A program made the translations under genes and the position numbers. The notes below the pieces were generated by a model. That model did not search any database. It was not told where the DNA came from and was given only the letters and a program-made list of their open reading frames with translations. A DNA stretch of 64,000 nucleotides from an uncultured Solirubrobacterales bacterium (GTDB lineage Bacteria > Actinomycetota > Thermoleophilia > Solirubrobacterales > 70-9): contig CAVOIH010000032.1 of NCBI GenBank assembly GCA_963695885.1, positions 31,188-95,187 of the forward strand. The letters are read 5' to 3'. Positions 46,891 to 63,717 of the stretch are shown in pieces (position 1 is the first letter of the stretch; each line of letters starts with the position of its first letter).

Positions 46891-48315
46891 ATGAGTAGTT
46901 CACTGAGACTGACCGCCGGGTCGATCGTTCTGGCCGCCTGCCTGCTTCTTCCGGCAACCCGGGCGCCGGCGACCGACAATCCCACCGCCCCTCCTCGGCC
47001 CAAGCTCCACAAGTGCGACATCGGCGCGAACAAGCCGTTCCGCTGTGGCCGGGTGATGGTGCCGGCGGTCCGCGGCCTGCCGAAGCTCGGCAAGCAGAAG
47101 ATCGGGTTCGCGATCCGTCCCCGTGGCGACCGGTCGCGCCCGTCGAAGGGCGCGTTCGTGTTCGTCGAGGGCGGTCCCGGTTACGCGGCGACGAACTCCG
47201 ACTCGATCAAGCCGTTCGGGGCGGTCTTCGCTCCTTTCCTCGAGCGGCACGACGTCATCGCGATCGACCAGCGCGGCACCGGGCTCTCCAATCCGCTGAA
47301 CTGCAAACAGCTGCAGCGCGGACGGGTGCCGCAGCAGAAGGCGCTCAAGGCCTGTGCGAGGAAGCTCGGCCCGAAGTACCAGGGCTACACGACGGCCGAT
47401 TCGGCGGCCGACATCGAGGCGGTCCGCCGGGCGCTCAGGCTGCCGAAGCGCAAGATGATCCTCTACGGCGATTCCTACGGCACCTACCTCGGGCAGTCGT
47501 ATGCGGCCAGGTACGGCAAGGGGCTGAGGGGAATGATCCTCTCGTCCGCCTACCCCGGCAACGACCCCTACTGGCGGACGCTCTACCCGGCCGCGCAGAA
47601 GGCCGTGCGACTCTCCTGCAAGCGCTTCCCCGAGTGTTCCGGCAACGCGCTGGGACGGCTCAATCGCACGATGAAGCGGTCCGGGGTCAAGTCGCGGTTC
47701 GTCAGCAACATCCTCGGCTACCTCATGGGCACCGCGCCGAGCTACTCCCCCAACGGGTACCGGAACCTGAACACCGCGGTCTCGGCCTGGCTGCGGGGCA
47801 GCCGGAAGGAGCTGCACGAGCTGGTCGACCCCGGAGGCCCCGGTTCCGGCCCGCCCGGCTACTTCTCCGAAGGCATGTACGAAGCGGTCACCTGCAACGA
47901 TTACCCGACCCCGTGGAATCAGAGGTCCGCCATTCCCGGGCGCCGCAAGCAGTTCGCCCGGGCCATCCGGGACTTCCGTCCGAAGGACTTCTGGGCCCCG
48001 ATCCCCAGGGGCACCTGGATGAAGGATCCGGCCAGCGACATCGACAACTGCATAACGTGGCCGGGCCCGACCCCGCGGATCAAACCGCCGATCCCGGCCG
48101 GGAAGAAGATGCCGGGGAGGCTGAACACCCTGGTCCTCGCCGGCGAGTTCGACGCGATCACGACGGTGAAGGAAGCCCGGATGGTGAACCGGCGCTTCCC
48201 GCGCGGCCGCCTGTACGTGGTGCCGAACCGCGGCCACGCCTCGGAGCTCTACTACCCGTTCACGTCGCCGGCGACCGGGCGGATCCGCCACTTCGTCCGG
48301 AATCTCATCCGGTAG
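46891..48315 (+). CDS. Secreted alpha/beta hydrolase (tripeptidyl-aminopeptidase-like)
   Basis: 474 aa. Signal peptide, nucleophile elbow YGDSYGT, IDQRGTGLS. Confidence 0.75.
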   Translation: MSSSLRLTAGSIVLAACLLLPATRAPATDNPTAPPRPKLHKCDIGANKPFRCGRVMVPAVRGLPKLGKQKIGFAIRPRGDRSRPSKGAFVFVEGGPGYAATNSDSIKPFGAVFAPFLERHDVIAIDQRGTGLSNPLNCKQLQRGRVPQQKALKACARKLGPKYQGYTTADSAADIEAVRRALRLPKRKMILYGDSYGTYLGQSYAARYGKGLRGMILSSAYPGNDPYWRTLYPAAQKAVRLSCKRFPECSGNALGRLNRTMKRSGVKSRFVSNILGYLMGTAPSYSPNGYRNLNTAVSAWLRGSRKELHELVDPGGPGSGPPGYFSEGMYEAVTCNDYPTPWNQRSAIPGRRKQFARAIRDFRPKDFWAPIPRGTWMKDPASDIDNCITWPGPTPRIKPPIPAGKKMPGRLNTLVLAGEFDAITTVKEARMVNRRFPRGRLYVVPNRGHASELYYPFTSPATGRIRHFVRNLIR

Positions 48316-48325
48316 CCGGACCCGC

Positions 48326-48868
48326 TCAGCGCGGCGCGAATTCCTGGGAACCGTCGCCCGGCGGCGGGTTCGGTACCGGAGTGGCCGGAGGCGGGGCCGG
48401 TGCCGGGGCGACCGGGACCGGCGCGGGTGCCGGGGCGGGGGCAACGGCCGCCGGAGGGGCCGGGGCCACCGGCGCCGGTGCTGCGGGGGCTCCCGAGCCG
48501 GCAGGTTTGCGGGTGGATCCGCCGTGCGTTCGGGCGGCCCGGCCGGCCTTGCGGGGCACCCGGGGACGGTTCCGGCGACGTTCGTCCCGCGGTTTCGCGG
48601 CGCGGCCCTTGCGCTCGCCCGCCTCCTCACCACGCTTCTGTTCGTTCCGGCCTTCGCCGTCATCGGACCGGGCGTGGGGAGGGTCCCGGGGTTCCGGGAG
48701 CAGGGATCCGGGGTTGGTCTCGGACGCCGTGAAACCCACATCAGGTGGCAGTTCCGGCGGTTCGGGCGTCTTCAGCAGACCGGGCAGGACGGAGAGCCCG
48801 AGCACCACCAATCCGGCCACGGCGGCGACCTTGATCGCGCGTTCCCGATCGATCCGGAGCTCCTTCAT
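48326..48868 (-). CDS. Hypothetical membrane-anchored Pro/Arg/Ala-rich protein
   Basis: I chose the ATG at 48868 (MKELRIDRERAIKVAAVAGLVVLGL...) within track ORF 48326-48907. Low-complexity C-terminus. Weak call. Confidence 0.35.
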   Translation of the reverse strand: MKELRIDRERAIKVAAVAGLVVLGLSVLPGLLKTPEPPELPPDVGFTASETNPGSLLPEPRDPPHARSDDGEGRNEQKRGEEAGERKGRAAKPRDERRRNRPRVPRKAGRAARTHGGSTRKPAGSGAPAAPAPVAPAPPAAVAPAPAPAPVPVAPAPAPPPATPVPNPPPGDGSQEFAPR

Positions 48869-48932
48869 GCCGGTTTCAGGTCGGGGCCGGGAAGTCTCTC
48901 CCCCCAAAGCCCGTTATAGTCCCGCGTCGATT

Positions 48933-49331
48933 TTGTCTGAAGAACCCCGCCAATACGAACTGGTCCTCATGCTCGATCCTGATCTGGCCGAGGAAAACCG
49001 TGAGAAGCTTGCGTCTGAGACCAAGGCTTCGATCGAGGCATCCGGAAAACTCCTCCATGAAGACAACTGGGGAATCCGCGAGATGGCCTACGAGATCAAT
49101 CGCAAGAAGGAATCGGACTACCGCTGGTACCGCTTCGACGCTCCCCGCGATCTCCTGACCCAGCTGGACCACACCCTGAAGATCACCGACGGCGTCGTCC
49201 GTTTCCGCGTATTCAAGGTCAACCCCGACGCCCCTGTTCTGCCGGCCCCTCCGGCCACAGCCGCAATCATGCAGCCCACGGGCGATGACGATGAGCGCCG
49301 GGGCCGAGGCGGCCGTTACCGCGACGAGTAG
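48933..49331 (+). CDS. rpsF: 30S ribosomal protein S6
   Basis: TTG at 48933 inside track ORF 47013-49331. MSEEPRQYELVLMLDPDL...GKLLHEDNWGIREMAYEI...YRWYRFD is the canonical S6 pattern. Confidence 0.85.
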   Translation: MSEEPRQYELVLMLDPDLAEENREKLASETKASIEASGKLLHEDNWGIREMAYEINRKKESDYRWYRFDAPRDLLTQLDHTLKITDGVVRFRVFKVNPDAPVLPAPPATAAIMQPTGDDDERRGRGGRYRDE

Positions 49332-49740
49332 TCGTCTCGTAGTGCCTGCGGCCCGCTTGGGTCGCCAACAGGTAGCTGGCGTAGACGAGGTCAGCAACTC
49401 GAGACATCGAAGTTGGCTTTCCATAACCAGTGACCTTGAACCTTCCGGCGCTATTCACAGGGAACTTCAACCTGGATGCAGAGCGTTGACCTCTCCGAGA
49501 GGGCGGAACCGCCCTTCTTCCCTGATCCGGGTCCGCCCGCCATCGCGGTAGACCGATACCCATATCGCGGCAGACCGGAATCCGTCCCAAATTCCGGCTT
49601 TGGGGGGCGAGAAATTCCGTCCCGTCCCTTTTGACCTCATCACGTCTCGTTAGATTTGGACTCTTGCTGCCGACACTCCCGTCAGCAGTGCAAACGCAAA
49701 GTCTGTTGAGACGGAAAGAACAACGAGGAGCGAATACGCA

Positions 49741-49830
49741 ATGGCTGAGAACATCAACATTTACAGCCCTCCACGTTCTGTTCGCGGTTGTTCGCCGAGT
49801 GCTGAGGTCGGCAGCCGTTCAAGTCCGTGA
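49741..49830 (+). pseudogene. Orphaned ssb 5' end (attL-like): GGAG, 10 nt, then ATGGCTGAGAACATCAAC, running into a 29-codon dead ORF
   Basis: The first 18 nt match the ssb start at 60189-60206 in 15/18 positions and encode the same MAENIN. The RBS spacing is identical. Similarity stops after codon 6. Confidence 0.7.
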
Positions 49831-50068
49831 CGTCGGGACATTAGGCTGTCAAGGGCCATCAGGAGTTGATGAGCTGGTCCGCTTGATTCCTACCAGGGTT
49901 ACCAGCGCAAAGTGCCGCATGAATGCGAACTTCGGGTTTGACATGCCCAGGTGGATCGCATAGGCTGGCCCGACTGTAGGTTTAGGAGAGGAATCAGAGC
50001 ATGGGTGTGACGCAAATGGGAGGATCCGGTTCGCGTCGGACGACGAAACGGGTCACCGGGAGATCGAA

Positions 50069-50656
50069 TTGACTTCGGTCCGAAAAGCTACGCTCGTCTC
50101 ACGACGTCATCTCCTTTCTCGATTCACCATTTTATCTATCGGCGGGGCGGTCGCGTCTCTTCCTTTCGTAGGTTCTACCAACGCATCGTCCGCAGGCGAG
50201 GGCGAATCCGGTCACTTATTTAGCGATTCGGAAGAGGTGCACTCGACGATAGGCGTCGCGATACAGAGGTTTGTCGAGCGAGAAGACGTCACTCCCCCCT
50301 TCGGCCAGGAAAACTTGACCGTCGGGATATTGCTCAACGATCCGCAGGCGAACATCGTCGTGAGCTTGAATGGTGAGAATGGTTCCGTGACTTTTGACCG
50401 GGAGGCGCTGCCACCCGACTCCGCAGTTTCGATGAGCGCGAATACCGCGCACGATCTAATTTCCGGACAACGAAACCTTGGCAAGGTGACCAGCGCGAAC
50501 GAGATCGTGGTGGTGGGAGATCGACAGGCATTGGCAGTTCTTTCACCTTTTCCCGAGAGCGTGCGACCCCACTACAAGGCCGCCCTTGGCGATGAAAGGC
50601 GCTCCGACCTACTGGTCAACTGGGACAAAGAGCCTCAACTAAAGGATGAGAAATGA
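50069..50656 (+). CDS. Tat-signal secreted protein with SCP2-like (sterol-carrier-like) C-terminal region
   Basis: 195 aa, TTG start. SRRHLLSRFTILSIGGAVASLPF twin-arginine-type signal. SMSANTAHDLISGQRNLGKVTSANEIVVVGD resembles the SCP2 fold motif (from memory). Confidence 0.5.
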   Translation: MTSVRKATLVSRRHLLSRFTILSIGGAVASLPFVGSTNASSAGEGESGHLFSDSEEVHSTIGVAIQRFVEREDVTPPFGQENLTVGILLNDPQANIVVSLNGENGSVTFDREALPPDSAVSMSANTAHDLISGQRNLGKVTSANEIVVVGDRQALAVLSPFPESVRPHYKAALGDERRSDLLVNWDKEPQLKDEK

Positions 50657-51866
50657 CCCCGGTACCCGGACCATATCGTGGGTTCAGTCTTTGGGATCCT
50701 GCTGTTCAGCCGACCCTTCCAGCCGACCCTTCCAGCCGATCATTTCACTGCAGTCGAGTCGGCCGAACGGCAGGCCGCGATGGGTGCGAATATAGGTCGC
50801 ATCAACATCAACTGGGGCGGTCAGATGGGCGGTTATTCTGGCAGTGGAACGCCTCTGCCGGCTCTTCAGGCTACTTCGTCGAGTAGCTGGAACTACGGCT
50901 CAGTTAGATCGAATCAAAGACATCGTGAGGGCCGCCAGGTCATTCAAGTCGACCTACCAGGTGCTTCCAATGATCGACGGGTTGCCCACTTGGGTCGATG
51001 GACGCGATTCGGGCGGTCATTACACAACCACCGACGCGGGTGCCAACCAGTATGGAATCGCGGTGGGGCAAATAATGGGCTATCTCAACAATGACCCGAC
51101 ACTGCCTGATGTTTGCAACTTTATTGAGCTGTCGAACGAACCGAATCAGAAGGTTACCTCCGGCACGCCTCATGCCACTGCCATCCCTCCTGAGGACTAT
51201 GGGCGGATGGCTGCCTATGCGACCCATTGGGCGGACTACTGCGGCGGTCAGAAATCCGATGGAACTCCGAAGAGAAATGTGCTCGCGGGTGCGCTAGCGA
51301 TCCGGGGCGGTCGAGCCTCATTCGTGAATGACTGGTTGCCCGAAGAATACGCAGCAAGCATGCGAGATGCGATCAATACCTACCTCTACCTGCTTAACCC
51401 CACAAACGCCACCAAGCGGGGGATCCTCCAGGCCGCGTGGCGAGGCTCCTTTCATCCGTACGCAAACCTTGGAAACAACCAAAACGGATTCGCTTACACC
51501 GATCCGCTAAATCCTTCTGACGACAACACTGCCGCGGAGGGCTCTGCGACTGTCATGGACACCTACCTCAGCAGGTTGAGACCGGTCTTCGGAACTACTC
51601 GAAAGTTGTGGTTCACAGAAACTGGAATCTCTAGCAACAAGATCGGCGCTAGTGAGCATGCCACGTTTCATGCGGCTGTTTGGTTCGGAGTAGCCTCATA
51701 TCCACAGGTCGAAGGCGTGATCAACTTCGGCTTCACCGACCTTGACCCGTTGATGACTAGCCCGACGGGTCTCTACTACAAGCTGGGTGTCGTTGAAGCA
51801 AGCGACGGGAAAACCTACAAGCCAGCTGGGAACACGCTCAAGGGGATCTGGGATGCCTGGATATAG
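50653..51866 (+). pseudogene. Clan GH-A (TIM-barrel) glycoside hydrolase, apparently frame-disrupted
   Basis: The coding signal runs through three frames. It starts at ATG 50653 (ATGA-coupled to the upstream stop), moves to the frame of ORF 50678 (GANIGRININWGG), then to the frame of ORF 50844 (IELSNEPN acid/base, SFHPY, WFTETG nucleophile). A 13-bp tandem duplication at 50710-50735 explains the first shift. Confidence 0.5.
50710..50735 (+). repeat. 13-bp x2 tandem duplication (ccgacccttccag) causing a +1 frameshift
   Basis: Read directly and anchored on ORF 50678 codons. Both frames read QPTLPAD across the two copies. Confidence 0.85.
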
Positions 51867-51972
51867 TCGAGAGTTTCAGACTCGGAACGGACCAGCAAAG
51901 CCCCCTGCCCGCAACTTAGGCAACTTCAGCGGTTTAGCTCATCGAGAACGCAATCCGAGGAGACGCAGAGCG

Positions 51973-53172
51973 ATGAAACGCCTGAAGAGTTTAAGCCTTT
52001 CCGTAATTGGAGTTGTCCTGCTCGGGGCGGGGCTTTCGCAGGTTGCTGAAGCCACGGTGCCCGGGCAGAACGGAAAGATAATGCTCGAAAGCAATGTCAG
52101 CGGCGCCGTGAAGCTCTTTACCGTGGATCCGCGCGGGGGCCCTTTGACTCAGATCTCTTCGGGTTCGGAGAGCAGTTACGATGCTTCTTTTTCCCCAGAC
52201 GGCACCCGGATTGTCTACGTTCGGAACAACCCGGACGACCAGCTTTGGACCAAGCCATCATCAGGCTCGGGTGGTCAAGAAGTGCCCTTGACGGATAACT
52301 CCGATTTTGACTCGAATTATCCAGGGGCCCCGGTTTACGCTCCAAACGGTGAATCGATCGTTTACAACGTTGCGGAGATTTTCGGTGGACCGGGCGAAGT
52401 ACCCCCGGTCGAAGAACTTCGAAAAATATCGGTCGAAGGTGGAGATGCCGCACCGTTGGGTCAGTGGGCGAGCTTCAGCTTGAACCCCGACATTTCGCCC
52501 GACGGGTCGCGAATCGCGATCGTGGATGCTGGCGGCTCAGAATCAGTAATTCGAATACTCACGATTGGTGGGACAGTTGTCAGCACACTTCCAACAGCAG
52601 GTCTAGCCGCAGACAATCCAACTTATTCAGCGGATGGATCGCGCATAGCATTTACTGGTACGGCCGGAGGCATCCGGCAAATCTTTTCGATCGGGGCCGA
52701 CGGTACCGGTCTGGATCAGCTAACCAGTGACCCAACTGAGAAACGTCGGCCAGTTTATTCACCAGACGGCACTGCCATCGCTTACTCGGATGCCAGCGGG
52801 GGCGCGATCTTTGCGATGGAAGCCGATGGTTCGAACCCCCACGAAGTGGCTTCAACACCTGCCTTCGACACCATGGCTGACTGGCAGCGGAAGACACCGT
52901 TTCTGGTTCGGAAAGTAAATCCGTTCAAGCGCACTGTTCAAACACGGATATTCGGGCCGGGTCGCCTCACAGTGTTCGGCAAGTCCGTTCGCAGGTCTTC
53001 GAAGATGGCGAAGTCCTCGGGTATGAAATCCGTCGCCCTTCGCCTGAAGAGCAGCACGAAGAGAAGGCTGGTCAAGCGTGGTCAGGCCCGATTCCCTGTC
53101 AGCATCAGGTTCGCGCCCAAGGGGGCCCTGTCAACGACCCGCAAGACGATCGTCCGCTTGCGGACTCGCTAA
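51973..53172 (+). CDS. Secreted TolB-like beta-propeller (PD40 repeat) protein with basic C-terminal domain
   Basis: ATG at 51973 inside track ORF 51787-53172, with a GAGGAG RBS 10 nt upstream. Signal peptide, repeated SPDG(T/S)RI(V/A) motifs, K/R-rich last ~90 aa. Confidence 0.7.
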   Translation: MKRLKSLSLSVIGVVLLGAGLSQVAEATVPGQNGKIMLESNVSGAVKLFTVDPRGGPLTQISSGSESSYDASFSPDGTRIVYVRNNPDDQLWTKPSSGSGGQEVPLTDNSDFDSNYPGAPVYAPNGESIVYNVAEIFGGPGEVPPVEELRKISVEGGDAAPLGQWASFSLNPDISPDGSRIAIVDAGGSESVIRILTIGGTVVSTLPTAGLAADNPTYSADGSRIAFTGTAGGIRQIFSIGADGTGLDQLTSDPTEKRRPVYSPDGTAIAYSDASGGAIFAMEADGSNPHEVASTPAFDTMADWQRKTPFLVRKVNPFKRTVQTRIFGPGRLTVFGKSVRRSSKMAKSSGMKSVALRLKSSTKRRLVKRGQARFPVSIRFAPKGALSTTRKTIVRLRTR

Positions 53173-53255
53173 CTGACGTTCGCTAGACCAGGTCGGGTAG
53201 TCAGCCCGAGATGGCTTAGGTAGATCGCGCGGAAAGACACAGAGTTCTTCGTCAC

Positions 53256-54396
53256 TAGTGTAGTGTCTCACAAATACATTGACATACGGTCGGTGAGCCG
53301 GTAACCTCGACCGCATGCCGAAAGCTGCCGCAGTCACGGTCGTATCCGACGAACAAAGGGCGACCCTGGAGCGCTGGGCCGGCGCCCACAAGACGCCGCA
53401 GAGCATCGCCACCAGGGCCCGGATCGTGCTGCGGGCCGCGGCGGGCGAATCCAACAGCGCGATCGCACGAGAGCTCGGGGTCTCGCGCCCGACGGTGATC
53501 ATGTGGCGCCAGCGCTTCGCCCGGGGCGGGCCGCCCGCGCTGGCCGAGACCAGGCCGGGTCGGGGGCGCAAGCCTTCGATCCCGACCAGCAAGGTGAAGG
53601 CGATCATCGAGGCCACCACCCAGACCACCCCGCCAGGCGAGACCCACTGGAGCTGCCGGACGATGGCCGAGGCTCAGGGCGTGAGCCCGGCGACGGTCCA
53701 GCGGATCTGGGATGCGCACGGTCTCAAGCCGCACCGGGTGCGGAGCTTCAAGCTCTCCAACGATCCGCTCTTCTTCGAGAAGCTCACCGATGTCGTCGGG
53801 CTCTACCTGAACCCGCCCGAGAGGGCGATCGTCCTTTGCGTCGACGAGAAGTCGCAGATCCAGGCACTCGATCGCACCCAGGCGAGCCTGCCGATGAAGA
53901 AGGGCCGGGCAGGGACGATGACCCACGACTACAAGCGCAACGGCACGACCACCCTGTTTGCGGCGCTCTCGATGATCGACGGCCGGGTTATCGGAGAGTG
54001 CCTTCCCCGCCATCGCCACCAGGAGTTCCTGAGGTTCCTGCGCACGCTCGATCGGGAGTTCCCCGGTGAGCAGGAACTGCATCTGATCGTCGACAACTAC
54101 CGCACCCACAAGCACGCCAACGTCGACAAGTGGCTCCGCAGGCACCCGCGCTTTCACCTGCATTTCACCCCGACCTCGAGCTCGTGGCTGAACCTGGTCG
54201 AGCGCTGGTTTCGCGAGCTCACCGAGAAGGCGATCCGTCGCGGCGCCTTTTACTCGGTGCCCGACCTTATCGAGGCGATCGAGGAGTTCCTCGAGGTACA
54301 CAACGACGATCCCAAGCCGTTCGTGTGGACGGCGTCGGCTGAGGCGATCGTCGCGAAGGTGAATCGATGTAAAGCTGTTTTAGAGACGGTGCACTA
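53256..54396 (+). mobile_element. IS630-family insertion sequence, flanked by a TA duplication
   Basis: Imperfect terminal inverted repeats: GTGTAGTGTCTCAC... on the left, and GTGCACCGTCTCTA... as the reverse complement of the right end. A TA sits at both junctions (53256-57 and 54395-96). About 1.14 kb, with a single DDE transposase ORF. GC is visibly higher than the surrounding island. Confidence 0.8.
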
Positions 54397-54397
54397 G
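53315..54397 (+). CDS. IS630 family transposase
   Basis: 360 aa. N-terminal HTH (SNSAIARELGVSRPTVIMWRQRF), DDE region ...LCVDEKSQIQAL...IVDNYRTHK...WLNLVERWF. Confidence 0.9.
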   Translation: MPKAAAVTVVSDEQRATLERWAGAHKTPQSIATRARIVLRAAAGESNSAIARELGVSRPTVIMWRQRFARGGPPALAETRPGRGRKPSIPTSKVKAIIEATTQTTPPGETHWSCRTMAEAQGVSPATVQRIWDAHGLKPHRVRSFKLSNDPLFFEKLTDVVGLYLNPPERAIVLCVDEKSQIQALDRTQASLPMKKGRAGTMTHDYKRNGTTTLFAALSMIDGRVIGECLPRHRHQEFLRFLRTLDREFPGEQELHLIVDNYRTHKHANVDKWLRRHPRFHLHFTPTSSSWLNLVERWFRELTEKAIRRGAFYSVPDLIEAIEEFLEVHNDDPKPFVWTASAEAIVAKVNRCKAVLETVH

Positions 54398-54608
54398 CCG
54401 AAGTATTCTGGGCCAACGCTCCCCTAGAGCTTTCAGGGACGGGTAGGCCGAAATGGGCGGAGCGAATGCGGTGCATGGGTTGCCTGGCGACTTGGCACAC
54501 TGCCTTTCGATGCGGGAGCCAATCTTCAGCAAACACCCCGATTGGCGTTGTTCGCCATGTTCGGCAGTGTCCGTTTAGCGTCCGAGTTCTGTTCTAGCAT
54601 TACGGAGC

Positions 54609-55793
54609 ATGAACGGAAGTGAACTAGGTACAATCGAACGGCTTTCCCGTACTGATGTCCGGCCGTTTCGTGTCCGTATCTCGGAGGCTCTCTCATACTG
54701 GACCGTCGTGGACTCGAAGTTCCGGCCGGTCACCGAAGCTGATCGATTCTTACAAGAGTCGCGCTTTGGGCGGGATCGTGCTGAAAGGACGACTCAGATA
54801 TACGCCGGAGACCTTTGCCTGTATTTCAACTGGCTGACTAGAAAAGGTCTAGATCTAGAGTCTGGACCTTCAGATCTCGGCCGGTTTGTTTTGGAGCTTC
54901 GTACGCAACCGATTGAGGCCGGAAAGAACCGTGGACACCCGCGATCGGCTGAGCGAATAAACGCGATTCTCTCGGTAGTCCGAAGCTTCTACAAGTTTGC
55001 CGTTGCTCACGATCTCGTCGGGGGGCAGGTCTTGAGCAAACTGTTTGAGGTTGGCGATAATCGGTGGCTTCCTGCGGAGCTCAAACCCGATGGACACGGT
55101 TTGCGTTATCGGGCTGCCCCTCGCCATGTCCTGCACGGCAGCCGTAACAAGACCCCGCGCGTGGCCTCTCCCGAGGAGTTCCACGCCCTGGTCGAAGCTT
55201 CCGAGCATTGGCGGGATAGGTTCTTGCTGGCGCTCTTGTGGTTCGGGGGTCTCCGCGTCGGCCAGGCACTTGGCCTGAGACGGGAAGACCTTCACTTTGC
55301 GTCTGATTCAACGGTGCTGGGCTGCCAAACCGAGGGTCCTCATATCCACATCCGAAAACGTGACAATGTGAACCGGGCCGATTCGAAGCGGCGAAAAGAA
55401 TTCGGGATACCGGCCCATCACTACATTTTGGGGTTTTACGAGCGTTACCTCGAAGAACGAGCCGAGGTGAAGAAGGCTGAGGCTTCCGACTTCGTCTTCG
55501 TAAATCTCTTCGCCGCTCCGCTCGGAGAACCGATGAAGCCGGATGGGGCGAATCGCATCTTCACGACCCTCTCCAAGCGTGCCGGTATTGAACCTGCGAT
55601 TACCCCCCACGCTTTTCGACATGCTGCCGGGACCAGGTGGGCCGAGAGCGGGGGGCTAGACGTAGCCCAAGCCCTGCTTGGCCATAGCTCGATTCAGAGT
55701 ACCCAGATCTACAACCACATCCGTGGAGAAAGGCTCCGGGATGCGGTGGATGCTGTAACGCCGGGCAGCCAACCCACGACGGAGAACCATTGA
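54609..55793 (+). CDS. Tyrosine recombinase/integrase (TnpA-like, smaller of pair)
   Basis: 394 aa. SAM-like N-domain; catalytic GLRVGQALGLRRED (R), HAFRHAAGT (HxxR), LGHSSIQSTQIYNH (H...Y). Confidence 0.85.
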   Translation: MNGSELGTIERLSRTDVRPFRVRISEALSYWTVVDSKFRPVTEADRFLQESRFGRDRAERTTQIYAGDLCLYFNWLTRKGLDLESGPSDLGRFVLELRTQPIEAGKNRGHPRSAERINAILSVVRSFYKFAVAHDLVGGQVLSKLFEVGDNRWLPAELKPDGHGLRYRAAPRHVLHGSRNKTPRVASPEEFHALVEASEHWRDRFLLALLWFGGLRVGQALGLRREDLHFASDSTVLGCQTEGPHIHIRKRDNVNRADSKRRKEFGIPAHHYILGFYERYLEERAEVKKAEASDFVFVNLFAAPLGEPMKPDGANRIFTTLSKRAGIEPAITPHAFRHAAGTRWAESGGLDVAQALLGHSSIQSTQIYNHIRGERLRDAVDAVTPGSQPTTENH

Positions 55794-58279
55794 CCGTGCC
55801 AGCGACCAGCCAGCTTCCGAATCTCCATTCCGGGCCAAGTGAGCTGGAATTGTTGCGAACCGAGATTGATTGGCGCCTGCTCAAAAAGCATGGCTGGAAT
55901 CAGAAGAACCTGCACTTCGAACCGGCTCAGAATGACACCTATTTCGGTTACGAGTTTTGCGATGTCCCGGACTGCGAGATGGCATCCTTCAAAGCAGGCC
56001 TTTGCACCGCATGCCATCGTCGCTTCGACAAAGTTGGAGGTACCCGGAACGCGTTCTTGAGAATTCCCCGCCCACCTGCCGATTTGAACGACAATGGGCC
56101 GGATCTCTGTCTCGTTTGTCGAACCCCAGGGCACGAACGTCCTTCATCGGGCCCCAGCGGCCTTTGTTCTAACTGCGAGGGCAAACGTCGCTGGCGAGAT
56201 CAAAGCGTAGAAGCTTTCGTCAGTGGTGACAATCATTGGGAGCCTGCCTCGCCGCTGCCCGGCCACGGGTTGTGTACGCGCCTTGGCTGCTCGCGTCGGG
56301 CCGCTACTCGCAGTAACCGCCTTTGTACGCGCTGCCGTGAGGAGTGGCGATTCGCAGGGCATCCGGAGCTAGCCAAGTGGCGATCGTCAGCCCCACCTAT
56401 GGTTTTCGGTGGAGGTCGCTTTGTTGATCTCTCGCCCCTTACCGAAAGGATCAGACTAGAGCTGCTCCTAGGAATTCAAACCAGTGCGATGGATGAAGTG
56501 CTTCTTAGCTGCAACACGATCCAGCAACTAGCGGGTCGTGCCCTTCGATCCAAGATGGATTCTCTGCTCGAGTTCAGTATGGAGCGCGGCAATGGCAGTG
56601 ACCGACTCTTTCTCAACCGGACCCAGCAGGCGATAAGGATCGTCTTCGTTGATCCTGACGAGGAACTTGAACGCGATGTCTGGGATCTGAGGATGCTCGG
56701 TTTCCCCAGCGGCAGCGGACGTCGACGCCGCCTTGACTTCTCGCCGATCAGTCAAGACTGGCTTCGAGAAGCTGCCAAGGAATGGGCAAAGGAGAACATC
56801 GCTCGGAGTGTCGGTAGAACAGGTGAGATCCTGGGCTCGGTCAGGCGACTGTCGGCACATCTAAAGGCCCGGCCCGACAAGGGCGAAGTCGTCTCGGCGC
56901 TCCAAAGGACCGACATCGCAGCCTTGCTCAGGCGGCTTGCGCGAATGGAGTCGGTGGGAAAACTGTCCCCGGCTTCTCGCCGATCGATCGTTTATGATTT
57001 GCGCTTCTTTCTGCGTAGCTCCCGCGAGCTAGGGCTTGCAGACCGGGCAGCCCCCTTGGAGGGACTTGCAGACAACTTCTCGATTGTGAGAGAAGACATA
57101 CCTGCGGCCTGGCGATCAGCCGAGACAGGCTCAGACAAGTCCTTGCCCCAAACGGTGATGGATCAACTCTTGAGCGAGAGCGCACAAGCACAGCTGCTTG
57201 AGGTCGAAGGCGCTGAAGTTCGTGATCTGATCTTGCTTCAGATCTGGATCGGACGACGGCCCGGCGAAACCTGTTCCCTTGAACTGGATTGTCTGGAATA
57301 CGGATCAAGCGGCGACCCTGCCCTCCTGTATGACGCCGGCAAGCAAAGGCTCCGAAGGATTCGCGTGCCGATCCATCGCGAACCGGCCGAAATCATCGAG
57401 CGTCAAGCCAAACGCATCACCGAGCGCTTTCCAGATACTCCCCGCTCGGAGCTGGCCCTGTTTCCAGCTAGATCGAGGAATCCTCGTGGTATCCGATCAA
57501 TACCCGTGACCCAGATGGCAAACCTGATTCGAGATTGGGTAGATCGGCTTGAGATCAAAGGGCAGAGCGGATCCGACTATTCCAAGGATCGCATCACCGC
57601 GTACGCTTTTCGGCATACGTTCGCCCAGCGCCACGCTGACAAAGGAACACCGGTTGACGTGCTTTCGGCCTTGCTGGCCCACGAGAACCTTTCCTCCACG
57701 CAGCACTACTATCACGTGCCCGAGAAGCGCAAGCGAATGGCAACCGCCCTCGTTTCTCCAATGACCATGAACAATGCGGGCGAAGTTGTAGGTGGCGACG
57801 AAGTGCTTGACGCCATGTTGGCCCGGCGTGAAATTGGTCGGATCCCGGTGCCCCTGGGATGGTGCACCGAAAAGTCAAATGTCGCAGCACACGGCAGCTC
57901 TTGGCCCTACAGGTACCGATGCTTGGGCTGCAGCCATTTCCGGACCGACCCCTCCCATTTAGAGGACCTCCAGAATCACCTGCGGAGGCTCTTGGCCGCT
58001 GATGAAGAACTCGGCGCCAAACTACCTGGGCTTGCCGACTGGGCAAAAGATGATGCGCTTTTATCTCAGGGCGAGATCAAGGCGGTGCGTGAGCTGGTCC
58101 GCGCCAACGAGCGCCTGTTGGAAAAGCTGCCAGAGGAGGATCGTGAGACGGTAGAAGAAGCGATTGCGACGATGCGAAAGCTCAGAGCGCAGGCAGACCT
58201 GAACATTCCGGAAACGGACGCCCTTCAGGTGAGGATCGTTTCCCCGACAACTAATCCGGCGGTAGAGAACGATGGCTGA
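55790..58279 (+). CDS. Large tyrosine recombinase (TnpB-like) with three N-terminal Cys4 zinc-ribbon-like modules
   Basis: 829 aa, 4-nt overlap with the upstream recombinase. AFRHTFAQRHADKG (HxxR), LAHENLSSTQHYYH (H...Y). Cys at residues 57/62/72/75, 107/110/126/129 and 162/167/179/182. Confidence 0.8.
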   Translation: MTVPATSQLPNLHSGPSELELLRTEIDWRLLKKHGWNQKNLHFEPAQNDTYFGYEFCDVPDCEMASFKAGLCTACHRRFDKVGGTRNAFLRIPRPPADLNDNGPDLCLVCRTPGHERPSSGPSGLCSNCEGKRRWRDQSVEAFVSGDNHWEPASPLPGHGLCTRLGCSRRAATRSNRLCTRCREEWRFAGHPELAKWRSSAPPMVFGGGRFVDLSPLTERIRLELLLGIQTSAMDEVLLSCNTIQQLAGRALRSKMDSLLEFSMERGNGSDRLFLNRTQQAIRIVFVDPDEELERDVWDLRMLGFPSGSGRRRRLDFSPISQDWLREAAKEWAKENIARSVGRTGEILGSVRRLSAHLKARPDKGEVVSALQRTDIAALLRRLARMESVGKLSPASRRSIVYDLRFFLRSSRELGLADRAAPLEGLADNFSIVREDIPAAWRSAETGSDKSLPQTVMDQLLSESAQAQLLEVEGAEVRDLILLQIWIGRRPGETCSLELDCLEYGSSGDPALLYDAGKQRLRRIRVPIHREPAEIIERQAKRITERFPDTPRSELALFPARSRNPRGIRSIPVTQMANLIRDWVDRLEIKGQSGSDYSKDRITAYAFRHTFAQRHADKGTPVDVLSALLAHENLSSTQHYYHVPEKRKRMATALVSPMTMNNAGEVVGGDEVLDAMLARREIGRIPVPLGWCTEKSNVAAHGSSWPYRYRCLGCSHFRTDPSHLEDLQNHLRRLLAADEELGAKLPGLADWAKDDALLSQGEIKAVRELVRANERLLEKLPEEDRETVEEAIATMRKLRAQADLNIPETDALQVRIVSPTTNPAVENDG

Positions 58280-58841
58280 AACAGAACGCACGAGAGCTAT
58301 GCGCGAAACTCGCAGGCTCTCAAGCAAACAGAAGCGCGGGCAGGTAATGGCGGCCTTGAAAGCAATGCTCGAGCGCGGCGAGGAAGTGTCGATCTCGGCT
58401 CTGGCCAGGCGAGCTGGTGTCGGACGCACGTTCATCTACGAAAACCCCGATCTCAGAGCTGAGATCGAACTCCATATTCGCGAGTCACAGGAGCAAGCGG
58501 CCGCCGGCATGATGGCGAGTGCTCGGGTTAGCTCTGCTTCGCTTCGGGCGGAGCTTGAAAACTACAAAGCAATAAATCGCCGACAAAAGGGTGAAATAAG
58601 TGCGCTAAGAGCCCGACTTAGTGAGCTGATGGGGGAGAAGCTGATGGAAGATATGCCTGAGGTCAGCTTCGGGGCATTTGATCAGAAAGCTGATGCCGAA
58701 TTGACAAAGCTCGAAGGCGACAAGTTCCGACTCGAAGAACGTGTCGCGGTTTTGGAAGAAGAGCTTGAGGCGGCGCGTGAGGTGAATCGAAAGTTGATGG
58801 GAAGGCTGAACCGGGAAGGCAGTGATGCTCGAACTATCTAA
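58272..58841 (+). CDS. DUF6262-like HTH plus coiled-coil protein (TnpC-position gene)
   Basis: 189 aa, 8-nt overlap with the upstream gene. VSISALARRAGVGRTFIYENPDLRAEIE matches my recollection of DUF6262 proteins that follow recombinase pairs. Long heptad-like C-terminus. Confidence 0.55.
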   Translation: MAETERTRAMRETRRLSSKQKRGQVMAALKAMLERGEEVSISALARRAGVGRTFIYENPDLRAEIELHIRESQEQAAAGMMASARVSSASLRAELENYKAINRRQKGEISALRARLSELMGEKLMEDMPEVSFGAFDQKADAELTKLEGDKFRLEERVAVLEEELEAAREVNRKLMGRLNREGSDARTI

Positions 58842-60042
58842 ATCACAAACCCCAGGCTGGCCACCTGCCCCGGCCGCCGAGGTATTCCACGGACCGGCGG
58901 GTGAGTTCGTCGAGCTCACTGAACCTCACACCGAGGCCGACCCGATGGCGCTGCTCGCCCAGTTCCTGATTGCTTTTGGGGTCGCTGCCGGCCGAAATTG
59001 CTACTACGCGGTAGAGGCAACACGACATTATCCCAACGAGTTCTGTGTCCTCGTAGGGCCTTCCAGCAAGGGTCGCAAGGGTTCCTCCTGGGAGCACGTC
59101 GAGCAAATGATGGCTACCTCTGACCCGGAGTTCGTTGACGAATGTCTGGCTATGGGGCTTTCCTCGGGCGAGGGTCTGATCGCTGAAGTTCGTGATGGCA
59201 AAGAAGACGAAGCTGATAAACGGGTGCTTGTTTTGGAGCAGGAGTTCGCCCAGGTCATGAAGGTTCTGGCTCGGGAGGGGAACACCCTGTCTCCCGTGGT
59301 TCGCCAGGCATGGGACGGCAAGACATTGCAAACGATGGCCAAGAATTCCCCAATGCGTGCGACCAATGCCCACATCGCCCTGGTCGGACACATCACAAAG
59401 GATGAGTTGCTTCGCTACTTGGGAGCAACTGAACTCGCCAACGGCTTTTTCAACCGCTTTCTTGTGATCGCGGTACAGAGGTCGAAGGAACTGCCATTCG
59501 GAGGCCAGTTGGACGGAGAGGACCTGACGAGAATTCAAAGCGACCTTGGTACGGCGCTGGAGTTTTCCTCCCACCCGAGGAAGATCGACTTCGACCATGA
59601 GGCATCTGACTTTTGGGTCTCTACCTACAGCGAACTGTCGAAGGGTGGTACCGGTCTACTTGGGGCTGCGACTGCTCGATCCGAAGCGCACTGTGTCCGT
59701 TTGGCGCTGATCTACGCACTGCTCGACCGGTCCGAGGCCATCGGCCTAGGTCACCTCGAAGCAGCCTTGGCCTTCTGGAAGTACGCCGCCGATAGCGCCC
59801 GATGGATCTTCGGAGAGAGCTTTGGCGATCCAACCGCTGATGACATCTGGGCCCTGGCCCGGGAGCGAACCGGGGGAGTATCCCGCACAGAAGTACGCGA
59901 TCTTTTCTCTCGCAACAAGAAGTCCCGGGAGATCGACCGAGCTTTGACCGTCCTGGTTGAGTCCGGCCGACTCGAACGGAGGGAACATTCAGACGGCAAG
60001 GGACGACCGACTGAGATCTGGATGCCAAGCAATGCTGCATAG
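58822..60042 (+). CDS. DUF3987-like P-loop protein (mobile-element helicase/primase-associated type)
   Basis: 406 aa, 20-nt overlap with the upstream gene. VLVGPSSKGRKGSSWE Walker-A-like loop. Overall layout resembles DUF3987 (from memory). Confidence 0.45.
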   Translation: MMLELSKSQTPGWPPAPAAEVFHGPAGEFVELTEPHTEADPMALLAQFLIAFGVAAGRNCYYAVEATRHYPNEFCVLVGPSSKGRKGSSWEHVEQMMATSDPEFVDECLAMGLSSGEGLIAEVRDGKEDEADKRVLVLEQEFAQVMKVLAREGNTLSPVVRQAWDGKTLQTMAKNSPMRATNAHIALVGHITKDELLRYLGATELANGFFNRFLVIAVQRSKELPFGGQLDGEDLTRIQSDLGTALEFSSHPRKIDFDHEASDFWVSTYSELSKGGTGLLGAATARSEAHCVRLALIYALLDRSEAIGLGHLEAALAFWKYAADSARWIFGESFGDPTADDIWALARERTGGVSRTEVRDLFSRNKKSREIDRALTVLVESGRLERREHSDGKGRPTEIWMPSNAA

Positions 60043-60188
60043 TAGATCTTCAATTTGTCGTTTTTGTCGTGAATCGTTAGCGCGTCCTGACTTTGGGGAT
60101 GCATGTTTCCAGTCCTCACGTCCCGGACAGTTGTTCGTGACGCCAAATACTGCTTATTAGCAGGCAAAACACTAGGAGAAATAGCCAA

Positions 60189-60653
60189 ATGGCCGAAAAT
60201 ATCAACAGAGTCACCATCACCGGCAACCTGACCGCCGACCCCGAACTGCGCCATACCCCGAGTGGCACCGCCGTGTGCCAGCTTCGTGTGGCGGTGAACG
60301 GCCGCCGGAAGGACCAGGGCGGCCAGTGGGTCGACAAGCCCAACTACTTCAACGTGACCGTCTGGGGCGCCCAGGGCGAGAACTGCAAGAACTACCTTTC
60401 GAAGGGCCGACCGGTCGCGGTCAACGGCCGCCTCGACTGGCGCGAGTGGGAAGCCAAGGACGGGTCCGGCAAGCGGCAGTCGGTCGAGATCGTCGCCGAC
60501 ACGGTCCAGTTCCTCGGATCCCGTGACGGTTCGGCCCCGGGCGGCAACGGCAACGGTGGCGGATTCACGCCGGCCTCCGACGTCCCGGCCGACACGGGTG
60601 ACTTCGCGGCGGCTCCGGGTGGCGGTGGCGCCGATGACGACATTCCTTTCTAG
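60189..60653 (+). CDS. ssb: Single-stranded DNA-binding protein
   Basis: 154 aa. OB fold NRVTITGNLTADPELRHTPSG...FNVTVWG, glycine-rich linker, canonical acidic tip DDDIPF. The first 7 codons are AT-rich at the third position, unlike the rest of the gene. Confidence 0.9.
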   Translation: MAENINRVTITGNLTADPELRHTPSGTAVCQLRVAVNGRRKDQGGQWVDKPNYFNVTVWGAQGENCKNYLSKGRPVAVNGRLDWREWEAKDGSGKRQSVEIVADTVQFLGSRDGSAPGGNGNGGGFTPASDVPADTGDFAAAPGGGGADDDIPF

Positions 60654-60794
60654 CGCCGCGCCCGCAGCGGACTTTTGCGGCCAATCCGGCGGCCAAGCCC
60701 CTGTGGCTGCCGGAAACCGGCTCGAACCGTTAGGATCACGAGTCCGTCAGTGCCCGGTCGTCCGGGCTGGAACTATGTAAGGCACCGAAAAACT

Positions 60795-61055
60795 TTGGCT
60801 AAGACAAGAGAAGCAGGATCATCGCGAAAAGGGCGCCGCTACAGCGAGCGGGTCCGCCCGCGCAAGTACACGAAGATCACCGCCGAGGACATCGACTTCA
60901 AGGACCTGACGCTCCTGCGCCGGTTCATCTCGGACAAGGGCAAGACCCGGTCCCGCCGGGTGACCGGGCTGTCCCGCAAGCACCAGGCCCAGCTGGGCGT
61001 GGCCGTCAAGCGCGCCCGCGAAGTGGCCCTCCTCCCGTACGTGGGTGAGCGGTAA
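60795..61055 (+). CDS. rpsR: 30S ribosomal protein S18
   Basis: TTG at 60795 inside track ORF 60675-61055. ...[50 protein letters not shown]. Confidence 0.85.
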
Positions 61056-61507
61056 TGGCCCAGGCCATCCTCCTGGCCGACGTCGAAGGGCTCGGTGAGA
61101 ACGGGACCGCCGTCGAGGTTTCCCCGGGATACCTCCGCAACTTCCTCCAGCCCCGCGGCCTGGCCCAGCCGGCTACCCCGGGCGCCCTCGAAGAGGCGAT
61201 CCGCCGGAAGGTTCAGGCCGAGAAGGCCGAGCGCGAGGCAATCGCCCGCGCCGCCGAGTCGGCGTCGCTGCTTTCCAAGACCGTCCTGACGATCAACCAC
61301 CGCGCCGGCGAAGACGGCAAGCTCTACGGCTCGGTCACGACCAAGGAGATCGCCGAGGCGATCCGCGATGCCCGTGGCATCAAGGTCGACCGCAGGAAGA
61401 TCCGTCTCGACGTGCCGATCCATCAGGTCGGTACCTACATGATCGACGTCGAAGTAACGGGCGGCGCCACGGCTTCGGTCAAGACGATCGTCGCCGAAGA
61501 GAAATAA
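61055..61507 (+). CDS. rplI: 50S ribosomal protein L9
   Basis: 150 aa. ILLADVEGLGENGTAVEVSPGYLRNFL...GKLYGSVT. The ATG overlaps the rpsR stop. Confidence 0.9.
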   Translation: MAQAILLADVEGLGENGTAVEVSPGYLRNFLQPRGLAQPATPGALEEAIRRKVQAEKAEREAIARAAESASLLSKTVLTINHRAGEDGKLYGSVTTKEIAEAIRDARGIKVDRRKIRLDVPIHQVGTYMIDVEVTGGATASVKTIVAEEK

Positions 61508-61560
61508 GCGCCCAGGTACCACCGCAGAACATCGAAGCCGAGGAATCCGTCCTCGGCGCG

Positions 61561-62904
61561 ATGCTGGTCAGCGATCCCGCGGTCAACCGCGTAATCGACG
61601 ACGCCCGGCTGAAAGCCGGCGATTTCTACCTCGACCGCCACCGGCTGATCTATTCGGCAATGGTCGAGCTCTACAGCACCGACCAGCCCTGCGACGAGCT
61701 GACCGTGAACGAGGCCCTGACCTCGGCCGGGCAGATCGAAGAGGCGGGCGGCAAGAACTACGTCTCCGAGCTGGCGGCCAAAGTACCCGCTCCCGGTAAC
61801 GCCGGCCACTACGCGAAGATCGTCCAGGAGAACGCGCTGCTCCGGCGCCTGCTCGACACCAGCCACCAGATCGGCGCCTGGGTCGAGGAGCGCGAGGGCA
61901 GCGGCCACGAACTCTCCGAGCGCGCCGAGCAGCTGCTGTTCGAGGTCGCGCACAAGGAGCAGTCGGGCGACTTCCGGGTGGTGCGGCAGGTGATCGACGA
62001 CGAAGTGGACCGCCTCGAGCGGATCGCGTCCGGTGAGCTCAAGGAGACCGGGATCCCCTCCGGATTCAAGCACCTCGACGGGATGACCGGCGGGTTCCAG
62101 CCCTCGAACCTGATCATCGTCGCCGCCCGGCCCTCGGTCGGCAAAAGCGCCTTCGTCGCGAACATCGCCGAGCACGTGGCGGTCAACGAAGGGCTACCGG
62201 TCGCGTTCTTCTCGCTCGAAATGTCGGAGATCGAACTCGCCCAGCGATTCATCGCCTCCCAGTCCAAGGTGTACGGCGAGAACCTCCGCCGGGCGAAGAT
62301 CAGCTCGAAGGACTGGGGCAAGATCACGGCGGCCGGCAACCGCCTCGAGAACGCGCCCCTCTGGATCGACGTGACTTCGGACCTCGGCCTGCTCGACCTG
62401 AGGGCCAAGGCGCGCCGCCTCCACACCCAGGAACTGGACCGGGGCGGGCTCGGCATGATCATCGTCGACTACCTGCAGCTGATGCGCATGGACGAGTCGC
62501 GCTCGAGCATGGTCGAGCGGGTCGGTCAGATCAGCCGTGGGCTCAAGCTTCTCGCCAACGAGCTCGAAGTGCCGGTGCTCGCCCTTTCCCAGCTCAACCG
62601 CGCCAGCGAGAACCGGCCGGTGACGGATCGCCGGCCGATGCTCTCGGACCTCCGCGACTCAGGCAACATCGAGCAGGACGCCGACCTGGTCGCGTTTCTC
62701 TACCGCGAGGACGTCTACCGCAAGGAAGAGGAACGAGACGGCACCGCCGAGGTGATCATCGCCAAGCACCGGAACGGCCCGATCGGCAAGAGCCCCCTGA
62801 CCTTCCTGCCGCAGTATCCCAAGTTCGTGGAACGCGCGCCGGAGCACCCGACGGGCGAGGGCTCGCCGGCCGCCGTGCGGGCCCAGGAAGAGCAGTACGG
62901 ATGA
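61561..62904 (+). CDS. dnaB: Replicative DNA helicase DnaB (true start probably upstream near 61504, see findings)
   Basis: 447 aa from the first ATG. GFKHLDGMTGGFQPSNLIIVAARPSVGKSAF Walker A, IVDYLQLM, ALSQLNR. Confidence 0.9.
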   Translation: MLVSDPAVNRVIDDARLKAGDFYLDRHRLIYSAMVELYSTDQPCDELTVNEALTSAGQIEEAGGKNYVSELAAKVPAPGNAGHYAKIVQENALLRRLLDTSHQIGAWVEEREGSGHELSERAEQLLFEVAHKEQSGDFRVVRQVIDDEVDRLERIASGELKETGIPSGFKHLDGMTGGFQPSNLIIVAARPSVGKSAFVANIAEHVAVNEGLPVAFFSLEMSEIELAQRFIASQSKVYGENLRRAKISSKDWGKITAAGNRLENAPLWIDVTSDLGLLDLRAKARRLHTQELDRGGLGMIIVDYLQLMRMDESRSSMVERVGQISRGLKLLANELEVPVLALSQLNRASENRPVTDRRPMLSDLRDSGNIEQDADLVAFLYREDVYRKEEERDGTAEVIIAKHRNGPIGKSPLTFLPQYPKFVERAPEHPTGEGSPAAVRAQEEQYG

Positions 62905-62935
62905 ATCCGTCCGCGCTCCCGGCGAGTCTCTAGCG

Positions 62936-63661: not shown

Positions 63662-63717
63662 TCCGCCGGACGCCTTTGCGCCGACGGGACAGACTCCGCT
63701 CCGGTTGACCTCCGTAG

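Follow-up and report, generated by a model that had tools for sequence, protein, structure and literature searches.

What separates rpsF from ssb in this genome, and how does ssb remain a gene when its native first codons have been parted from its body? The question is raised by a locus in a 64,000-nt stretch of Solirubrobacterales DNA (hereafter the window, by whose coordinates all features are numbered). Pfam matches and open reading frame (ORF) calls place the stop codon of rpsF at 49331 and the start of ssb at 60189, the latter followed by rpsR, rplI and dnaB, which bears out the original prediction that the rpsF-ssb-rpsR-rplI order is interrupted. The inserted DNA between rpsF and the body of ssb amounts to 10,448 bp (49760-60207) and is, in all likelihood, a Tn554-type site-specific integrative element that split ssb and rebuilt it. 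The sole trough of guanine-plus-cytosine (GC) content in the window extends over ~49.5-60.2 kb, with a GC of 0.55-0.59 against 0.63-0.72 elsewhere, and is broken only by a host-like insertion sequence of the IS630 family. The GC content at third codon positions (GC3) of the genes in the trough, IS630 apart, is 0.57-0.65; ssb (0.85), rplI (0.86) and dnaB (0.91) have higher values, and the lower GC3 of the island is a composition foreign to the flanking host genes. The direction of the GC contrast first proposed (48-63% versus 78%) stands, although its magnitude was overstated.

The insertion is bounded by an imperfect repeat. The sequence ATGGCTGAGAACATCAAC(A) at 49741 and its counterpart ATGGCCGAAAATATCAAC(A) at 60189 agree at 15/18 positions, or 16/19 if the following A is counted, and GGAG plus exactly 10 nt precedes both copies. 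No other match of at least 15/18 occurs in the window, and none arose in 200 shuffles of 20 kb. The left copy is exact in 16 of 18 relatives, where it continues as AG[AGT]GTC, and carries one synonymous base change in the remaining two; the 40 nt upstream of the start are conserved in the 18 relatives, and the native GGAG lies at 49727-49730 within the ssb leader. The right-copy codons GCC-GAA-AAT are found in none of the hosts, AAT at codon 4 being absent from all MAENIN-type host ssb genes, and the right-copy sequence is identical in related elements from other samples (L084, L175 and L176). Because the relatives match the left copy and no host has the right-copy codons, the left copy is the native start of ssb and the right copy was brought by the insert. 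Translation confirms that the native start now opens a dead ORF of 29 codons, and the crossover is confined to the shared ATCAAC(A). The repeat with its identical ribosome-binding-site spacing, the dead ORF, the origin of each copy and a crossover in or next to ATCAAC had all been called from the window and held up on closer inspection.

Empty sites, sought in relatives as a check on the prediction, are present. Species-representative genomes scanned with the SSB protein yielded 80 ssb loci, all from Solirubrobacterales/Thermoleophilia-type metagenome-assembled genomes (MAGs). At every locus with sufficient upstream DNA, rpsF lies 150-1,500 bp upstream of ssb, and tblastn with the island proteins over the 80 loci gave no match to any of them. 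In the closest relative (L001, 88-91% nucleotide identity; 94% identity for the RpsF protein), window positions 49575-49759 correspond to 650-837 and positions 60188-64000 to 818-4595; the two alignments overlap on the repeat, so that the homology breakpoints coincide with it. The empty sites and exact breakpoints support the predicted site-specific integration into the 5' end of ssb with reconstitution of the gene, and none of the outcomes named beforehand as refuting it was observed. The core ATCAAC is present at the equivalent position in 59 of the 80 species-level ssb genes of the class. As a separate observation, about 10 of the 80 ssb contigs (L004-L007, L013, L021, L022, L026, L044 and L063) begin 80-360 nt upstream of ssb; assemblies often break within the rpsF-ssb spacer, though away from the core.

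The machinery likely responsible for this integration is encoded by the last four genes of the island, which overlap or abut as one unit and specify tyrosine recombinases of 394 and 829 amino acids (aa), a 189-aa DUF6262 protein and a 406-aa DUF3987 protein, all full length and of sizes matching their homologues (Table 1). A tblastn search of plasmids with the long recombinase retrieved Enterococcus and Staphylococcus records, one of which is Tn6674, a member of the Tn554 family laid out as a radC-like JAB gene, tnpA (361 aa), tnpB (630 aa) and the gene of a "DUF6262 family protein" (125 aa); DUF6262 corresponds to TnpC (PMC11947258). The R, HxxR and H...Y catalytic boxes were aligned by BLASTP to those of Tn6674 TnpA and TnpB, with YxxR in place of HxxR in the TnpB-like protein, and the TnpB alignment includes a C-terminal Cys motif after the catalytic domain. 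At its N-terminus, the TnpB-like protein bears a ~290-aa Cys-rich extension, three sets of its cysteines being invariant across the aligned family; this domain is found in only 184 clusters among 1.84 billion representatives. Pairwise BLAST alone gave no significant match between the TnpC-like protein and TnpC of Tn6674; hhalign related the two with a probability of 95.8% (E 8e-9). Judged by these homologies, the recombination module is a Tn554-type TnpA/TnpB/TnpC trio, not a phage-type integrase. Two tyrosine recombinases, a DUF6262-like and a DUF3987-like protein had been correctly listed in the original prediction, in which the trio as such went unseen.

Both recombinases are generic PF00589 proteins with XerC/D-like scores, as would also be expected under an ordinary phage or integrative and conjugative element (ICE) pattern, in which one integrase would act with a directionality factor and the second recombinase would serve elsewhere, for example in dimer resolution. 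Scans of the island proteins against Pfam, TIGR/NCBI families, PHROG and PADLOC detected no conjugation, packaging or defence genes. Their PHROG matches are restricted to integrase and helicase/primase families, with no relaxase, FtsK/TraB or capsid, and PADLOC gave no match for seven island proteins, as would not be the case for a defence island. In place of a single integrase and Xis amid phage or conjugation genes, the island holds two recombinases and a TnpC homologue, and the recombinase pair (with overlapping stop and start codons) and this homologue are kept as a unit in every related element. The pair furthermore matches that of Tn554, for which all three products are required for transposition according to Bastos and Murphy (1988), as cited in PMC10214605. 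We consider the phage/ICE pattern very unlikely.

Diverged relatives use the same site. Junctions at the same ssb codons were found in 11 further contigs from ~6 element lineages with 45-90% TnpB identity, so that the element does recur beside ssb in other genomes, as the original prediction invited one to verify; every element whose TnpB is at least 45% identical to that of the window and whose flank is visible occupies this ssb position. With the window counted, 5 left (attL) and 7 right (attR) attachment junctions all fall at ssb codons 5-7, and in each case module and ssb point the same way (attL in relatives: L086, L083, L172, L174; attR: L081, L084, L086, L092, L175, L176). L086, a minimal element of four genes and about 5.7 kb without cargo, reads rpsF, ATGAGCGGATTCGACATCAAC/ATTTTC... 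(slashes mark junctions), the four module genes and GGGAG...ATGAGTGGGTTTGATATCAAC/ACGGTG... in ssb. The element of L175 is complete, measures 7.65 kb and carries three small, unrelated genes as cargo; downstream of it come ssb, rpsR, rplI, dnaB, a dnaC-like gene and purA. In L081, L092 and L176 the module is followed by ssb, and the attL junctions of L083, L172 and L174 read ATGAGCGGTTTTGAAATCAAC/[CA]TTTTC and ATGTCCGCAGCGAACCTCAAC/GTTTAC. In the two elements with both junctions known, the start cassette encodes the exact peptide of the host (MAENIN and MSGFDIN), and since all differences between host and element cassettes in these fully resolved pairs (7/7) are synonymous third-position changes, the comparison argues for selection on the rebuilt SSB N-terminus.

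Recurrence of this kind bears on the most trivial explanation, namely a chance repeat or an assembly chimera of unrelated contigs, which could appeal to the fact that the longest exact identity is 7 nt and that the repeat finder did not report the repeat. A 7-nt identity cannot cause a misjoin, the architecture recurs in independent ENA, Logan and JGI assemblies, and both the shuffles and the coincidence of breakpoints with the repeat speak against it. The probability of either is negligible.

The ends of these elements are asymmetric and share a common layout. The consensus following the core is [ACG]TTT[AT][CT], with tandem TGT[TC]CGC repeats ~20-40 nt further in, and the left-end layout of the window is also found in L086, L172, L174, L083, L175 and L082. 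The conserved right-end blocks were delineated from an alignment of four ends from elements sharing 54-82% TnpB identity with that of the window. At the second repeat cluster, between cargo and module, homology starts at 54532 with L084 and at 54517 with L175. This recurrence of left-end-like repeats at 54.5 kb first raised a tandem accretion of two elements, which was rejected: L086 has both clusters, there is no internal core copy, and the cargo of L175 fills the same slot. A motif cluster, together with a 14/18 match at 18721, pointed to a possible further element at 17.6-18.8 kb, which was likewise dismissed as ordinary membrane-protein coding sequence of host GC.

We propose the following course of integration. 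A circular form would carry at its joint (attP) the right end, GGAG, ATGGCCGAAAAT, ATCAACA and the left end, and would recombine with an attB consisting of the first seven host ssb codons (ATGGCTGAGAAC-ATCAACA-GAGTC). The predicted attP reads ...GGAGAAATAGCCAAATGGCCGAAAATATCAAC/ATTTACAGCCC... and the predicted attB ...GCAATGGCTGAGAACATCAAC/AGAGTCAC..., strand exchange presumably taking place inside the 6-7-bp core ATCAAC(A). The two tyrosine recombinases (TnpA-like and TnpB-like) would catalyse the reaction, assisted by the DNA-binding TnpC-like protein; these roles are proposed because of the homology with Tn554 and its requirement for three products, of which the conservation of the four genes as a unit is only suggestive here, and by the same analogy we infer that both recombinases are needed and that the circle is the intermediate. 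As a result, the native ribosome-binding site and start now lie at attL as the 29-codon orphan, and at attR the element supplies ssb with a new ribosome-binding site and first codons, which encode the same MAENIN peptide. The gene ssb is essential in bacteria tested, which would be why the element comes with its own ribosome-binding site and with an ATG plus four to five codons to restore the gene. Since the core encodes the Ile-Asn of the conserved N-terminus and is widespread in the ssb genes of the class, it would offer a dependable site. Transcription of ssb may start at the native ssb promoter and read through the co-oriented element, or it may arise from a non-consensus promoter in the conserved 146-nt right end. 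A terminator scan from the native leader to ssb found no convincing terminator, terminator-like sites being fewer than in shuffles, and the RNA fold of the right end indicated no structure (z-score -0.4).

Several observations weigh against the reading of a Tn554-type element integrating through a circle. A scan of the right end and native spacer found no consensus sigma-70 promoter, so that none is identified in the right end. No attP joint or excised circle was detected in the sequences searched, including a regular-expression search over all loci that returned attL junctions only. TGTYCGY motifs are not enriched in the window (38 observed versus 39 expected), and their significance derives only from their conserved position across elements. 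The structural model of the DUF3987 protein is poor (pLDDT 58.9). A frameshifted gene and an IS630 insertion in the cargo are signs of age, and the divergence of the module from that of L175 (79.5%) resembles that of the host flanks (81.5%), which allows for long vertical inheritance. Separately, 73 attP-type matches in viral contigs were discarded, as all correspond to unrelated AT-rich phage DNA and none is accompanied by the module.

The last two of the points raised against integration through a circle are what one would predict for an immobile, vertically inherited island, that is, one ancestral site-specific integration now decaying. Against such an island, the module retains four full-length genes and the element two intact ends, L001, a closer relative (88% in the flank), has an empty site, and the cargo is wholly different among the window, L084 and L175. 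In addition, in four contigs, which come from different samples, one terminus falls exactly at the core: L175 starts with ATCAACATTTA, L084 ends with ...GAAAATATCAAC, L082 starts at the equivalent left end, and L173 starts with TTTTCTAGGG, the bases after ATCAACA in L174. Such contig ends are suggestive, and only suggestive, of assembly graphs branching from coexisting junctions (attL and attP; attR and attP or attB). Overall, we find an immobile island unlikely.

A more serious contender, if not a probable one, is replicative "copy-out, copy-in" movement, in which the circle carries 6 bp of the left flank of the donor and no empty site is produced. This route was proposed for strand-biased circularizing elements (SEs), and possibly for Tn554, with which SEs have in common an ordinary and a long tyrosine recombinase, a TnpC/Srap-like protein and a 6-bp core (PMC10214605); the homology of the window module to TnpA, TnpB and TnpC of Tn6674 points the same way. 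On the other hand, the core is identical at both junctions, which makes any footprint unreadable, and the target homology borne by the element comprises 18-21 nt of coding sequence, beyond 6 bp. That nearly all relatives are empty fits loss and never-occupied sites alike.

Coming back to the Tn554-type reading, the module has a fourth gene. Its DUF3987 product aligns with PHROG helicase and primase families over the C-terminal halves of the latter, its low-confidence AlphaFold model matches only MCM-type AAA+ helicases, matches which we treat as weak, and a sequence search of the PDB with this protein returned nothing. With low confidence, the protein may be modelled as a helicase-like ATPase with a C-terminal winged helix, which could replicate or otherwise handle the excised form. 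Searches of plasmid and phage collections gave no close DUF3987 homologue, and the idea that plasmid- or phage-borne ssb genes serve as alternative targets has so far found no support. Among the best 120 of more than 5,000 matches (P0042-P0161), most DUF3987 proteins are 63-70% identical, and between those elements the neighbouring recombinases are only 35-54% identical, which indicates strong constraint on DUF3987. The four-gene module also occurs away from ssb in large MAG contigs (L089 3095-8627, L091 552-5948 and L177 5834-11227), with DUF3987 ~66% and TnpB 35-40% identical; the TnpB-like gene of L177 is made of two ORFs.

A bolder extension, which we regard as rather doubtful, is that the clade has become wired into the ssb transcription unit, its genes being read from the host ssb promoter and its DUF3987 protein replicating the circle. 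The element would land between the native promoter and ribosome-binding site and the body of ssb, and would relay expression to ssb-rpsR-rplI-dnaB via its host-matched cassette. If so, deletion of the right end and the adjacent recombination module would kill the cell, amounting to a toxin-free addiction, and an MCM-like DUF3987 ATPase, strongly conserved, would replicate the excised circle beside the host genes for SSB and DnaB.

Table 1. Features of the rpsF-ssb region, in window coordinates.
Feature	Coordinates	Strand	Evidence
rpsF (ribosomal protein S6), host gene upstream of the insertion	48951..49331	+	Pfam PF01250 5e-22; TIGR00166 8e-17
Native ssb leader, conserved part of the rpsF-ssb spacer, now detached from ssb	49575..49740	+	blastn to L001 650-837 (86%) and to L018
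attL, native ssb start ATGGCTGAGAACATCAAC(A); core ATCAACA at 49753-49759	49741..49759	+	Sequence of relatives; homology to L001 ends at 49759
Orphaned 29-codon ORF MAENINIYSPPRSVRGCSPSAEVGSRSSP*, in which MAENIN precedes 23 residues encoded by the element, downstream of the native ribosome-binding site of ssb	49741..49830	+	Translation
Left end with ATTTAC followed by tandem TGTTCGC repeats (49779, 49789), putative recombinase-binding sites	49760..49800	+	Layout common to relatives
Cargo: 195-aa protein with SRRHLL twin-arginine-type signal and weak SCP2-like region	50069..50656	+	Pfam SCP2 E 1.4e-3, below cutoff
Cargo: probably frameshifted gene, two overlapping frames with NEPN and TETG motifs	50678..51866	+	Frame analysis
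Cargo: secreted PD40 (TolB-like beta-propeller) protein	51973..53172	+	Pfam PD40 2e-16; TIGR02800 1e-25, partial
IS630-family insertion sequence, transposase at 53315-54397	53240..54410	+	NF033545 2.9e-83
Cargo/module boundary, second TGTTCGC/TGTCCGT cluster upstream of the tnpA-like gene	54517..54608	+	Motif alignment
TnpA-like tyrosine recombinase, 394 aa	54609..55793	+	PF00589 2e-29; Tn6674 TnpA, 26% identity, E 1e-25, full length
TnpB-like long tyrosine recombinase, 829 aa	55790..58279	+	PF00589 1e-13; Tn6674 TnpB, 27% over 462 aa, E 1e-25
TnpC-like accessory protein (DUF6262), helix-turn-helix and coiled coil, 189 aa	58272..58841	+	PF19776 3e-14
DUF3987 protein, helicase-like, fourth module gene, 406 aa	58822..60042	+	PF13148 1e-14
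Right end: conserved blocks GTCGTTTTTGTCGT, CGTTAGCGCGT, ACA..TGTTCG and ATTAGCAGG.AAA; own GGAG at 60175-60178	60043..60188	+	Alignment of four right ends
attR, element-borne ssb start ATGGCCGAAAAT, then core ATCAACA at 60201-60207	60189..60207	+	Alignment with L001 resumes at 60188
Rebuilt ssb, 154 aa; rpsR, rplI, dnaB and a dnaC/istB-like gene downstream	60189..60653	+	PF00436 2e-34

The closest known systems are those of the Tn554 family (Tn554, Tn6674, Tn6188 and others, from Staphylococcus, Enterococcus and Listeria), which share with the window element a tnpA-tnpB-tnpC arrangement of ordinary recombinase, long recombinase and DUF6262 protein and insertion within a gene, at one chromosomal site and with fixed orientation, and apparently also a short core (6-7 bp) and asymmetric ends; the window element resembles them as well in that no conjugation or packaging genes were found in it. 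Broadly defined, the family accommodates the element as regards its co-oriented tnpA and tnpB, a tnpC (DUF6262) directly downstream, one site and a fixed orientation. Unlike family members, the window element resides in a host of the Thermoleophilia (Actinomycetota), encodes proteins only 26-27% identical to theirs, has a TnpB of 829 aa whose ~290-aa Cys-rich extension is lacking in the 630-aa TnpB of the family, and adds a fourth gene, DUF3987, together with the ribosome-binding-site and start-codon cassette that rebuilds its target. The family in its narrow sense, defined by att554 in radC and a ~630-aa TnpB, does not include an element that targets ssb codons 5-7 through an 829-aa TnpB; a radC-like JAB gene adjoins Tn6674. 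Family members in the broad sense lack terminal inverted repeats, make no target duplication and have a 6-bp core common to target and junctions. The window element has asymmetric ends, and both its junctions exhibit the exact 6-7-bp core, with an extra imperfect coding match of 12-15 nt to its left that is undescribed for Tn554. The hosts reported for Tn554-related elements in PMC10214605 are Staphylococcus and Enterococcus, and the transposition route is given there as unresolved.

Actinobacterial relatives of Tn554 were described in silico by Van Houdt et al. (2012), with no ends, att sites or targets defined (PMC3414803). These transposons combine, in one orientation, an abnormally long recombinase (611-828 aa), an adjacent one of typical size and a TnpC-like gene, and the window trio (829, 394 and 189 aa, from a Solirubrobacterales host) corresponds to their definition. 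Homologous trios are found in a Streptomyces albus plasmid and in pRHL3 of Rhodococcus jostii RHA1, with TnpB proteins 32-34% identical over 93-97% and a location not near ssb. In contrast with the transposons of Van Houdt et al., the ssb clade has both ends and its target resolved, a DUF3987 gene and a start cassette.

Integrating into a conserved housekeeping gene at its 5' end is also the strategy of the SXT/R391 family, whose insertion into prfC is site-specific and falls at the 5' end of that gene (PMC4344509). Unlike the window element, SXT is conjugative, measures ~100 kb and relies on a single lambda-type integrase and Xis. Hochhut and Waldor are said to have reported in 1999 that SXT supplies a new 5' coding end and promoter. 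The gene prfC is not essential. Finally, SEs and GInts resemble the window element in their multiple recombinases, lack of a transfer apparatus, target specificity and 6-bp footprint, Srap/GinD being counterparts of TnpC by structure (PMC10214605). They possess four core genes, including the catalytically dead Tfp/GinC, and are found in Gamma- and Betaproteobacteria, features not seen in the window element, and they show no detectable sequence similarity to its module.

The remainder of the element is variable cargo. In the window and in L175 it is flanked by the two left repeat clusters; in L082 and L083 it is situated downstream of the module. In the window, the PD40 protein has a signal peptide from M63. 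The gene content first listed was upheld for the PD40/TolB-like protein and the IS630, and only weakly for the SCP2-like protein; the "GH-A" pseudogene label found no support in Pfam, a search at E<=10 giving no match for this gene, and only the NEPN and TETG motifs and the overlapping frames speak for it. The IS630 has a host-like GC3 of 0.87 and imperfect inverted repeats at 53240-53260 and 54392-54410, and no TA target duplication was resolved. Given its host-like codon usage within lower-GC cargo, its arrival from the host genome probably postdates the integration of the element.

Two side observations concern cargo and targets in related elements. L081 (1-8650), which also occupies the ssb site, has in its cargo a serine resolvase and an M78 peptidase paired with a helix-turn-helix protein, besides a ThiF/DUF6791/BubE gene set that may constitute a defence or ubiquitin-like system. 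A 4.6-kb element made only of the TnpA/B/C-like trio, 96% identical between two otherwise unrelated contigs (L111 5177-9783 and L127 198-4804), sits inside homologous phage-type integrase genes; the host ORF (...RPHDLKH...ARRAGH) runs up to the element, and the catalytic-tyrosine box SSVAFTYDRYGHL lies beyond its right end. The apparent target of this sister clade is an integrase gene belonging to another mobile element, a gene that it does not rebuild. Metagenomic relatives number roughly 430, and the targets known to date are ssb and this integrase gene.

Around the island, the start codon of rpsF is not fixed, the onset of the S6 domain lying at ~48951. Upstream, positions 48250-48900 are Pro/Ala/Gly-rich, low-complexity coding sequence on both strands (GC 0.74-0.76), which creates a spurious 772-aa ORF running into rpsF. 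An IstB/DnaC-like AAA+ gene (62936-63661) immediately follows dnaB, as it does in L175. Elsewhere among the ssb loci, dnaB tblastn matches are split by 1.2-3 kb, or dnaB lies 3 kb farther from rplI, in L039, L054, L059, L062, L064, L068 and L078, which suggests inteins or other insertions in or before dnaB. An Rfam scan of 48000-61500 at E<=1 returned no matches.

A literature search found no paper describing integration into ssb. What is new here is a set of resolved att sites, a target inside an essential gene, a start cassette matched to the host and an added DUF3987 gene. The locus and its relatives supply exact attL, attR and attB sites, an inferred attP, a 6-7-bp core, conserved end motifs and the natural minimal element L086, which together make up a ready-made system for studying the two-recombinase mechanism. 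More generally, a mobile element can occupy the first codons of a gene essential in the bacteria tested by means of a replacement ribosome-binding site and start. Because the core ATCAAC is so common in ssb genes of the class, the potential host range is wide, and this site-specific integrase pair, with its conserved bacterial target, may serve as a tool for uncultured-type Actinomycetota.

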